Source of the DNA: Escherichia phage WPEC4
Sequence record: PV682947.1
Strand: one strand, 5' to 3'
DNA: 64,000 bases
A program made the position numbers and the translations under genes. Shown piece after piece: positions 6,823-13,650 of this stretch; position 1 is the stretch's first letter; each line of letters opens with the position of its first letter. A model generated the notes under the pieces. That model ran no database searches and was not told where the DNA came from. It was given only the letters and a program-made list of their open reading frames with translations.

Positions 6823-6937
6823 ATGATCACTATCACAACAAAACAAGAAAAAATTATTACAGATATTGCCGCCGTTGCCGCTATTGCTATTATAGGTACC
6901 TACTATGACACCGCGCGACCTTCCTCCTTACATGAAA
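6823..6937 (+). CDS. hypothetical membrane protein, 5' part only (reading frame runs into mosaic)
   Basis: ATG 6823 after AAGAGAAAAC; encodes MITITTKQEKIITDIAAVAAIAIIGTYY... then loses sense in the mosaic; true 3' end unknown. Confidence 0.3.
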
Positions 6938-9900
6938 TAAGACTCATCAGCATCGTAGAAAGGAGAGATGCGACTTAAGTCAAGACCTTCTTGTAAGAAC
7001 CAGTTAAAATCTTTATGTTACAGGGTGCACCTTTTAATAAATGGGAAGAGGCTGTAGGAGAAGACCCTAGAATTGAAGAAGAATTTGACGAAAACGACAA
7101 GTCCATTTTTAAAAGCAGCTACTGGTGGTCCGAAGAAGCCTGAAATGAGCGTATTTGCTGCAACAACAGATGGAAATTTTAACTGGTTCTTACAAGAAGG
7201 TCTTGACTTAAGTCGCATCTCTCCTTTCTACGATGCTGATGAGTCTTATTTTTTATGAATCTCCCCTAAATACTTTTCTAAGATTTTACGACCCTCGTCG
7301 ATAAGGGCTTGTTCTGTAGTAATTTCCGTTCCTTCCTCCTCAAATTATTAACGAAACCGCATGACTAAATCTTGGTTCAGATATAACCTCTGCTACAGTC
7401 ACATAGTTTTATGAATCTCCCCTAAATACTTTTCTAAGATTTTACGACCCTCGTCGATAAGGGCTTGTTCTGTAGTAATTTCTATTCCTTCCTCCTCAAA
7501 TTATTAACGAAACCGCATGACTAAATCTTGGTTCAGATATAACCTCTGCTACAGTCACATTGTTACAGGGTGCACCTTTTAATAAATGGGAAGAGGCTGT
7601 AGGAGAAGACCCTAGAATTGAAGAAGAATTTGACGAAAATTTTAACTGGTTCTTACAAGAAGGTCTTGACTTAAGTCGCATCTCTCCTTTCTACGATGCT
7701 GATGAGTCTTATTTATGTTACAGGGTGCACCTTTTAATAAATGGGAAGAGGCTGTAGGAGAAGACCCTAGAATTGAAGAAGAATTTGACAAAGATTTTAA
7801 CTGGTTCTTACAAGAAGGTCTTGACTTAAGTCGCATCTCTCCTTTCTACGATGCTGATGAGTCTTATCTGTTGTTGCAGCAAATACGCTCATTTCAGGCT
7901 TCTTCGGACCACCAGTAGCTGCTTTTAAAAATGGACTTGTCATTCTTCATTCTCCTCTTCTGCATTTCTTATATATGGTGAAACACCGTACTCTTTAGCT
8001 ACTTTAACCCAATCGTCCCGCATCTGTTGTTGCAGCAAATACGCTCATTTCAGGCTTCTTCGGACCACCAGTAGCTGCTTTTAAAAATGGACTTGTTATT
8101 TTTCATTCTCCTCTTCTGCATTTCTTATATATGGTGAAACACCGTACTCTTTAGCTACTTTAACCCAATCGTCCGCAATAAGACTCATCAGCATCGTAGA
8201 AAGGAGAGATGCGACTTAAGTCAAGACCTTCTTGTAAGAACCAGTTAAAATTTGTCAGCTTGTTAATCATTGGTGATAAATAGCGTTTACCAACGTAAAA
8301 CAGCACGCCAACTGATGCAACGGCGGTGATCTCATGTAAGGAGGAAGGTCGCGCGGTGTCATAGTAGGTACCTATAATAGCAATAGCGGCAACGGCGGCA
8401 ATATCCCTCTCCTCTCTTGGGGCTTTGCCCCTCCTCCTTGTTATTTTTAACACCCCTCTCCGAAAGGTTAGGGGCTTTTTTCTTTTTGGATAGTTGGCAA
8501 TCCATGCTTTATAGAAGCGAAGCAATGTTGCACTGCTCAACGGAATATTATTTGTCATTTTTGTCTCCTTCATAATCCTGAATTCTATCTAGCACCCATT
8601 GTATACGATGTTTGTTTTTATGGCAAATATGTTTTTTATGCAGGATAGTTGGCAATCCATGCTTTATAGAAGCGAAGCAATGTTGCACTGCTCAACGGAA
8701 TATTATTTGTCATTTTTGTTTTCCTTCATAATCCTGAATTCTATCTAGCACCCATTGTATACGATGTTTGTTTTTATGGCAAATATGTTTTTTATGTTAG
8801 AAAAATGACAAATAATATTCCGTTGAGCAGTGCAACATTGCTTCGCTTCTATAAAGCATGGATTGCCAACTATCCTGTCTCCTTCATAATCCTGAATTCT
8901 ATCTAGCACCCATTGTATACGATGTTTGTTTTTATGGCAAATATGTTTTTTATGTTCCCTCTCCTCTCTTGGGGCTTTGCCCCTCCTCCTTGTTATTTTT
9001 AACACCCCTCTCCGAAAGGTTAGGGGCTTTTTTATTTTTGTCAGCTTGTTAATCATTGGTGATAAATAGCGTTTACCAACGTAAAACAGCACGCCAACTG
9101 ATGCAACGGCGGTGATTTCATGTAAGGAGGAAGGTCGCGCGGTGTCATAGTAGGTACCTATAATAGCAATAGCGGCAACGGCGGCAATATCGGTGTCAGC
9201 TTGTTAATCATTGGTGATAAATAGCGTTTACCAACGTAAAACAGCACGCCAACTGATGCAACGGCGGTGATGGATAGTTGGCAATCCATGCTTTATAGAA
9301 GCGAAGCAATGTTGCACTGCTCAACGGAATATTATTTGTCATTTTTGTTTCCTTCATAATCCTGAATTCTATCTAGCACCCATTGTATACGATGTTTGTT
9401 TTTATGGCAAATATGTTTTTTATGGTCAGCTTGTTAATCATTGGTGATAAATAGCGTTTACCAACGTAAAACAGCACGCCAACTGATGCAACGGCGGCGA
9501 TTTCATGTAAGGAGGAAGGTCGCGCGGTGTCATAGTAGGTACCTATAATAGCAATAGCGGCAACGGCGGCAATATGATTTCATGTAAGGAGGAAGGTCGC
9601 GCGGTGTCATAGTAGGTACCTATAATAGCAATAGCGGCAACGGCGGCAATATCTGTTGTTACAGGGTGCACCTTTTAATAAATGGGAAGAGGCTGTAGGA
9701 GAAGACCCTAGAATTGAAGAAGAATTTGACGAAGATTTTAACTGGTTCTTACAAGAAGGTCTTGACTTAAGTCGCATCTCTCCTTTCTACGATGCTGATG
9801 AGTCTTATATAAGACTCATCAGCATCGTAGAAAGGAGAGATGCGACTTAAGTCAAGACCTTCTTGTAAGAACCAGTTAAAATTTCCGTCAAATTCTTCTT

Positions 9901-12900: not shown

Positions 12901-13650
12901 TAGAAGCGAAGCAATGTTGCACTGCTCAACGGAATATTATTTGTCATTTTTTTTTCCTTCATAATCCTGAATTCTATCTAGCACCCATTGTATACGATGT
13001 TTGTTTTTATGGCAAATATGTTTTTTATGTTTTAACTACAAAATTGCGCATATTTTATCCTCCTCATATCTGATCTTATCACAAAATGATATACAATTGC
13101 AAGCATGAAAAATTTTAACTACAAAATTGCGCATATTTTATCCTCCTCATATCTGATCTTATCACAAAATGATATACAATTGCAAGCATTAAAAAGTTTT
13201 ATGAATCTCCCCTAAATACTTTTCTAAGATTTTACGACCCTCGTCGATAAGGGCTTGTTCTGTAGTAATTTCCCTGTTGTTGCAGCAAATACGCTCATTT
13301 CAGGCTTCTTCGGACCACCAGTAGCTGCTTTTAAAAATGGACTTGTCATTTTTCATTCTCCTCTTCTGCATTTCTTATATATGGTGAAACACCGTACTCT
13401 TTAGCTACTTTAACCCAATCGTCCGCATCTGTTGTTGCAGCAAATACGCTCATTTCAGGCTTCTTCGGACCACCAGTAGCTGCTTTTAAAAATGGACTTG
13501 TCCATCTGTTGTTGCAGCAAATACGCTCATTTCAGGCTTCTTCGGACCACCAGTAGCTGCTTTTAAAAATGGACTTGTCATTGAAATTACTACAGAACAA
13601 GCCCTTATCGACGAGGGTCGTAAAATCTTAGAAAAGTATTTAGGGGAGAT
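6860..13650. repeat. mosaic array of ~88 shuffled ~75-bp tiles (12 tile types, both orientations, short variable junctions)
   Basis: Same tiles recur 5-12 times each; unique copies of several tiles at 39336-39485, 62499-62648 and at both flanks. Confidence 0.9.

Follow-up and report, generated by a model that had tools for sequence, protein, structure and literature searches.

The 6.8-kb tile array in the Escherichia phage WPEC4 record as an assembly artefact: a list of untrimmed k=77 graph edges

Introduction

The sequence deposited for Escherichia phage WPEC4 (PV682947.1), of which a stretch of 64,000 nucleotides (nt), the window, was analysed, contains at 6859-13659 an array of tiles of about 77 nt that recur in both orientations. 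This 6.8-kb array is not a real feature of the phage and is almost certainly an assembly artefact, in which short edges of a de Bruijn graph with a word length (k) of 77 were concatenated with large contigs into a false 'complete genome'. The array lists k=77 graph edges whose overlaps were left untrimmed, and these 77-nt overlaps are what appear as tiles. The finding is carried by the edge geometry of the pieces, by the uniqueness of each piece, by the specificity for k=77 and by block joins that differ among sibling records.

The source phage is an ordinary phAPEC8-like Phapecoctavirus, a myovirus of about 150 kb. Over the 8 kb beside the tile array, the window matches Escherichia phages WPEC1, WPEC2 and WPEC6 at 100% identity and many Phapecoctavirus genomes at >99.5%. 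As reference for mapping, the sequence of the intact relative Mt1B1_P17 (NC_052662) was concatenated and the window aligned to it.

Tiles and their source points

A repeat search of positions 6500-14000 returned 18 direct-repeat families and 103 inverted-repeat pairs, with spacings clustering at 77, 149-156, 230-233 and 309-313 nt. By exact matching of invariant cores, 88 tile instances of 12 types were located in both orientations between 6863 and 13658; 86 of these, with 2-12 per type, lie inside the 58 pieces parsed below, and the other two are the tiles that end the neighbouring blocks. The tiles are 94-100% identical over 77 nt, far above chance. A preliminary description of the window had reported about 12 recurring tiles in about 88 copies and both orientations, together with further copies at 39336-39485, at 62499-62575 and at the start of the gene at 62624. 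The repeat search and the core matching bear out the former, and the latter were recovered as single copies at 39336-39483 and 62505-62648.

The 12 tile types are the left and right flanks of six sites, J1 to J6, that is, the 77 nt on each side of six points of Mt1B1_P17 (J1, 6796; J2, 39108; J3, 93625; J4, 116796; J5, 123646; J6, 150260), through all of which the reference is colinear. Each site has 2-3 variable bases within 2-7 nt. The patterns, in the code of the International Union of Pure and Applied Chemistry (IUPAC), are GG[Y]GAT[Y]TC at J1, GAA[R]AA[Y][R]AC at J2, CAT[K]AAAAA[K]AAA at J3, GAC[R][R]A[R]AT at J4, GAA[Y][R]GAA at J5 and TTTTT[C/G/T]T[Y]TCC at J6. They amount to 29 local haplotypes, of which four belong to J1, five to J2, four to J3, seven to J4, three to J5 (including the wild type) and six to J6. 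The length of the invariant core is 77 minus the variable span at five of the six sites (73, 73, 71, 76 and 75 nt for spans of 4, 4, 6, 1 and 2). At J4 the core as defined has 73 nt, and with the further invariant base retained by each double-tile piece the length becomes 74, or 77 - 3.

Double tiles of 149-155 nt, which account for 30 of the 58 pieces, are native colinear sequence running through one of the six points, and between copies of one pair the differences are confined to 2-3 positions in the middle. The frequent tile pairs pointed out in the preliminary description are accordingly real, but they are native stretches and not shuffled combinations. Similarly, the tiles were there taken for gene-boundary modules and turn out to be contig-end k-mers around micro-variable sites. 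The array contains 25 open reading frames (ORFs) of at least 60 amino acids (positions 6860-13650), and an ORF in which MLQGAPFNKWEEAVGEDPRIEEEFD seemed to be fused to FNWFLQEGLDLSRISPFYDADESY is no chimera, being the native protein gp243 of Mt1B1_P17 (...EEEFDGDFNWFLQ...).

Graph geometry of the pieces

In a de Bruijn graph an edge close to variable positions p begins at p_i-k or p_i+1, ends at p_j-1 or p_j+k, and has a length of at least k+1. This rule was applied through an explicit site model with a dynamic-programming parse, and was complemented by a forward simulation of the graph. Simple chaining on the multiplicity of 77-mers within the window had broken at the J5 pieces, whose partner edges the window does not contain, and was replaced by the site model. 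At k=77 the segment 6936-13582 was parsed into 58 pieces with zero leftover bases; all 58 obey the edge rule and all are distinct. They comprise 28 single-tile pieces of 78-83 nt besides the 30 double tiles, and are distributed over the sites as 8 for J1, 11 for J2, 8 for J3, 17 for J4, 3 for J5 and 11 for J6. With the same parser, k values of 70-76 and of 78-85 stop after 1-7 of the 87 tiles, and k=77 reaches 87 of 87. None of the 2123 internal 77-mers is repeated, while the terminal ones are mostly common to three piece ends, as expected of branch vertices, the commonest vertex degree being 3.

The forward simulation led to the same set. A k=77 graph built from the 29 haplotypes yielded 60 unitigs, of which 58, used once each (28 forward and 30 reverse), reproduce 6936-13582 exactly to the base; their order and orientation are arbitrary and their overlaps untrimmed. 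The two unitigs left over form the wild-type path of J5, the adjoining block of which is not part of the window.

These results bear directly on the idea of a biological structure, namely a recombination hotspot or shufflon-like array reshuffling gene-boundary modules of about 75 bp. The occurrence of tiles in both orientations and in many neighbour combinations, and the presence of comparable arrays in the sibling records, would agree with it. However, the boundaries fall exactly at p-77, p+1, p-1 and p+77 of the variable bases, and do so for k=77 only; each piece is present once, the set of pieces matches the unitigs of the simulated graph, and intact relatives are continuous through all six points. 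To our knowledge, no biological process counts 77 nt from a single-nucleotide polymorphism.

Sibling records

WPEC1 (GenBank PV659873), WPEC2 (PV691511) and WPEC6 (PV763039) come from hospital wastewater in Thailand, with E. coli EC3.18 as host; a literature search found no relevant paper on these phages or on EC3.18. Their records have lengths of 161, 159 and 155 kb, respectively, versus about 150 kb for relatives, and hold the same variable sites and allele sets as the window. All 8 combinations of J4 and all 4 of J3 are present in each sibling, 5-6 of the 6 of J6 are found, and all 4 of J1 occur in WPEC1 and WPEC6. WPEC1 and WPEC2 have about nine additional variable sites, at Mt1B1_P17 positions 3690, 16073, 18437, 22634, 80659, 84184, 94613, 104682 and 107529.

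The large blocks, in contrast to sites and alleles, have different neighbours in every record, and the arrangement of the window matches none of the three siblings. The block to the right of J5 is joined to the tile array in the window, to J4-left in WPEC1 and to reference position 42259 in WPEC2; in WPEC6 the J5 site is intact and the sequence colinear through it, and J3 abuts J4-right. Since block joins vary between assemblies whose compared 8 kb are 100% identical, the arrangement is not a property of the DNA. The preliminary description had looked to a shared arrangement in independent isolates as the mark of a genuine structure, and what the isolates share is the sites and their alleles, not the block neighbours. 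The notion of a biological array is thus effectively refuted and retains next to no probability.

The WPEC1 record is broken at roughly 20 points, and short edges cluster in many places, for instance at 28705-31502, 54758-56072 and 57597-59366. It carries 381 annotated features versus 295 in Mt1B1_P17, and sibling stretches that match the array are annotated as strings of 'hypothetical protein' coding sequences (CDSs). Extra tRNA-Gln calls at 56544-56616 and 62541-62613 of WPEC1 are probably artefactual copies.

Large blocks of the window

The window is made up of four large blocks, each colinear with Mt1B1_P17 but wrongly ordered and oriented. All of them start or stop exactly on the outer 77-mers of the sites, at 6935, 13583, 39410/39411 and 62575/62576. 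The first, window 1-6935, corresponds in reverse to reference 14754 to 6800; it is part of the J1-J2 block and ends on the 77-mer immediately to the right of J1 (6859-6935), a terminal tile of the first large contig that is also found in the short J1 edges inside the array. The second block, 13583-39410 (aligned over 13580-39410), corresponds to reference 123645 to 150259; its first 77-mer is the right flank of J5 (13583-13659) and its last the left flank of J6 (39334-39410). The third, 39411-62575 (aligned over 39412-62576), is the region between J4 and J3, in reverse, from reference 116794 to 93626. The fourth runs from 62576 to 64000 and starts to the right of J2, at reference 39110.

The two junctions between these last blocks are further false contig joins, located outside 6860-13650. 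At 39410/39411 (77-mers at 39334-39487) the J6-left contig end is set against the reversed J4-left contig end, and continuity across it is absent from all 122 related phage records; what had been described as an adjacent gene start and end at 39336-39485 is this join of two contig ends. At 62575/62576 (62499-62652) the reversed J3-right contig end is placed against the J2-right contig end, with continuity in none of 66 related records.

Block 1-6935 is only about 93-94% identical to Mt1B1_P17, versus about 98-99.6% for most of the remaining window. It shows colinearity gaps at about 2091-2147, 3786-4095 and 5325-5611, and a 40-nt element at 6760-6799 is repeated at 2740-2777 with 90% identity. 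The block looks like a naturally variable region of small ORFs in these phages, with repeated intergenic signals. In the window as a whole, the sign of the GC skew flips at about 21000-22000, coinciding with a switch of gene orientation in the matching reference annotation, and at about 59000; these flips are unrelated to the tile array.

Proposed origin of the array

The array most probably arose as follows. Short reads of an ordinary phAPEC8-like phage would have been assembled by a de Bruijn-graph assembler at k=77. Six genome places with 2-3 variable bases in many combinations would have left unresolved tangles of short edges, extending from p_i-77 or p_i+1 to p_j-1 or p_j+77 and hence measuring 78-83 or 149-155 nt, and the genome itself would have been broken into six large contigs ending on the flanking 77-mers. 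Large and small contigs or edges would then have been written consecutively into one record, without trimming, without Ns and in arbitrary order and orientation, so that the 77-nt overlaps between neighbouring graph edges show up as recurring tiles. The assembler was probably SPAdes or a similar program, as 77 is the largest default k of SPAdes for 150-nt reads. A later step may have merged all contigs or edges into a single sequence. The read depth was presumably very high, letting minor variants survive the cleaning of the graph.

The nearest known counterpart is the set of bulge edges that a de Bruijn assembly leaves unresolved, with which the pieces agree in every defining feature that could be tested. 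As with the bubble or bulge edges of SPAdes-type contigs at k=77, their lengths range from k+1 to 2k+1 nt, they share 77-nt ends, each is unique and their orientation is arbitrary. Such edges are usually discarded or kept as separate tiny contigs, whereas in this record they were strung together with the large contigs and submitted as a 'complete genome'. Very high coverage has been described to let recurrent errors form false de Bruijn branches that fragment phage assemblies, and subsampling to 80-100x is advised (Philipson et al. 2018, PMC5923482). The present case is similar in that recurrent variants produce false branches that break a genome continuous in its relatives. It is more extreme than the generic published account, in that adjacent bases show nearly every combination and do so in four assemblies.

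Several points weigh against an assembly artefact of this kind. The order of the pieces is not the length-sorted order of a SPAdes contigs.fasta file and must therefore stem from another file or tool. Both the assembler and the concatenation step are known by inference and were not seen directly. The micro-heterogeneity behind the tangles reaches 8 coexisting haplotypes at one site, yet it is confined to about 15 sites even though the genome has many comparable sequence contexts.

Alternative explanations

The alternative that survives best concerns the agent and not the nature of the artefact. Instead of manual concatenation, an automated scaffolder, contig merger, graph-path exporter or 'circulariser' ignoring k-mer overlaps may have produced the record, a possibility to be held tentatively and as the less likely of the two. 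Apart from the absence of length sorting, it would account for adjacent pieces that are graph neighbours in path order with the overlap kept, such as 12184-12261, 12262-12340 and 12341-12492, where the three J4 edges for G, GG and GGAG follow one another. Yet most consecutive pieces are not graph neighbours, and the array is therefore not one coherent path. The sequence alone cannot separate an automated from a manual concatenation.

Known systems of programmed DNA variation resemble the array superficially only. Shufflons, invertible segments of the Gin/Cin type and diversity-generating retroelements (DGRs) have in common with it segments in both orientations or localised hypervariable bases. 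Unlike in shufflons and Gin/Cin segments, there are no short recombination sites at the piece ends, the boundaries are set by k in unrelated sequences and every segment is present once. Unlike in DGRs, the variable clusters span 2-7 nt and not about 100 nt, and they are not adenine-specific. The annotation of Mt1B1_P17, the only source consulted on this point, lists neither an invertase or site-specific recombinase of that kind nor a reverse transcriptase. A DGR acting at the micro-variable sites was rejected, as no reverse transcriptase is annotated and the sites, altered at 1-4 positions each, show G>A, T>C and A>C; a shufflon or natural recombination array was discarded because the same arrangement is not reproduced in WPEC1, WPEC2 and WPEC6.

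A synthetic or combinatorial construct of ligated oligonucleotides, homology arms or a degenerate library, cloned or phage-borne, is scarcely credible: tile pairs of about 150 nt do look like paired homology arms, and the variable positions behave like IUPAC-degenerate R, Y, K and M with nearly all combinations present, but the pairs are contiguous in the native sequence, unlike arms for a deletion or an insertion, the single tiles (78-83 nt) and their exact dependence on the spacing of variable bases are properties of graphs and unlike those of ligation products, and the sibling records are described as hospital-wastewater isolates. Among the three candidates put forward in the preliminary description, assembly artefact is hence the one that agrees with the k=77 unitig geometry; the synthetic construct and the recombination hotspot are excluded.

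Cause of the micro-heterogeneity

Without some 6-15 micro-sites at which up to 8 haplotypes coexist there would be no artefact, and the cause of this heterogeneity has to be considered apart from the array itself. The four assemblies together have about 15 such sites with about 30 variable positions. The biallelic positions are all R, Y, M or K and never W or S, and a single position is triallelic (C/G/T). Each of the ten transversions listed can be read as A>C directly 3' of a T, and in nine cases at least two Ts precede; transitions, read along the local sense strand, are G>A or T>C and mostly lie next to A-rich purine tracts. That adjacent bases occur in nearly all combinations, that these recur in four assemblies and that substitutions are limited to certain classes argues for a process acting independently on each base, that is, for read or library error. 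A technical error is therefore the probable cause, the best guess being recurrent read errors kept at very high depth. Caution is advisable in that few of the many similar genome contexts are affected; the lack of hairpin enrichment and the condition attached to two-dye signal bleed, both given below, call for it as well. A real mixed stock, or another cause, is clearly less probable but deserves consideration.

A further alternative would have the heterogeneity physically real, generated by site-specific hypermutation or heteroplasmy at the translation-initiation signals of a Phapecoctavirus and regenerated in each lysate. The variable positions include two ATG start codons (J2 and J5) and two Shine-Dalgarno boxes (J6 and reference position 22634), and three variable sites (J1, 3690 and 18437) overlap GATC. 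Such a mechanism is considered very improbable. On natural polymorphism at J4, a pattern scan of IMG/VR returned one contig only, with the wild-type GGAG as in Mt1B1_P17, which is too few to be informative.

Other triggers were considered as well. Hairpins or inverted repeats were rejected on the minimum free energy of 81-nt windows, for which the 15 sites showed no enrichment over 1500 random windows, with percentiles of 0.01-0.97. Signal bleed in two-dye sequencing, a tentative lead meant to cover all the variant types (G>A and T>C beside an A, A>C behind runs of T), would fit only if C carried both dyes; according to the one source found, A carries both on the NextSeq 2000 and MGISEQ-200 (PMC11140927). 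Escape from clustered regularly interspaced short palindromic repeat (CRISPR) immunity, restriction escape and base editing, judged from sequence context, cannot explain all adjacent-base combinations in four assemblies.

Implications

The array has no biological significance, and its relevance is one of data hygiene, as a curation flag for these records. At least WPEC1, WPEC2, WPEC6 and the record of the window contain several kb of duplicated graph edges and a scrambled block order, and from them dozens of spurious 'hypothetical protein' CDSs are entering public databases. A quick and generic signature of this type of artefact is provided by an invariant core equal to k minus the variable span, together with pieces of k+1 to 2k+1 nt that are each unique. 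Records of this kind will contaminate protein clusters, distort statistics on genome size and analyses of synteny, and interfere with the search for repeats or novel elements.

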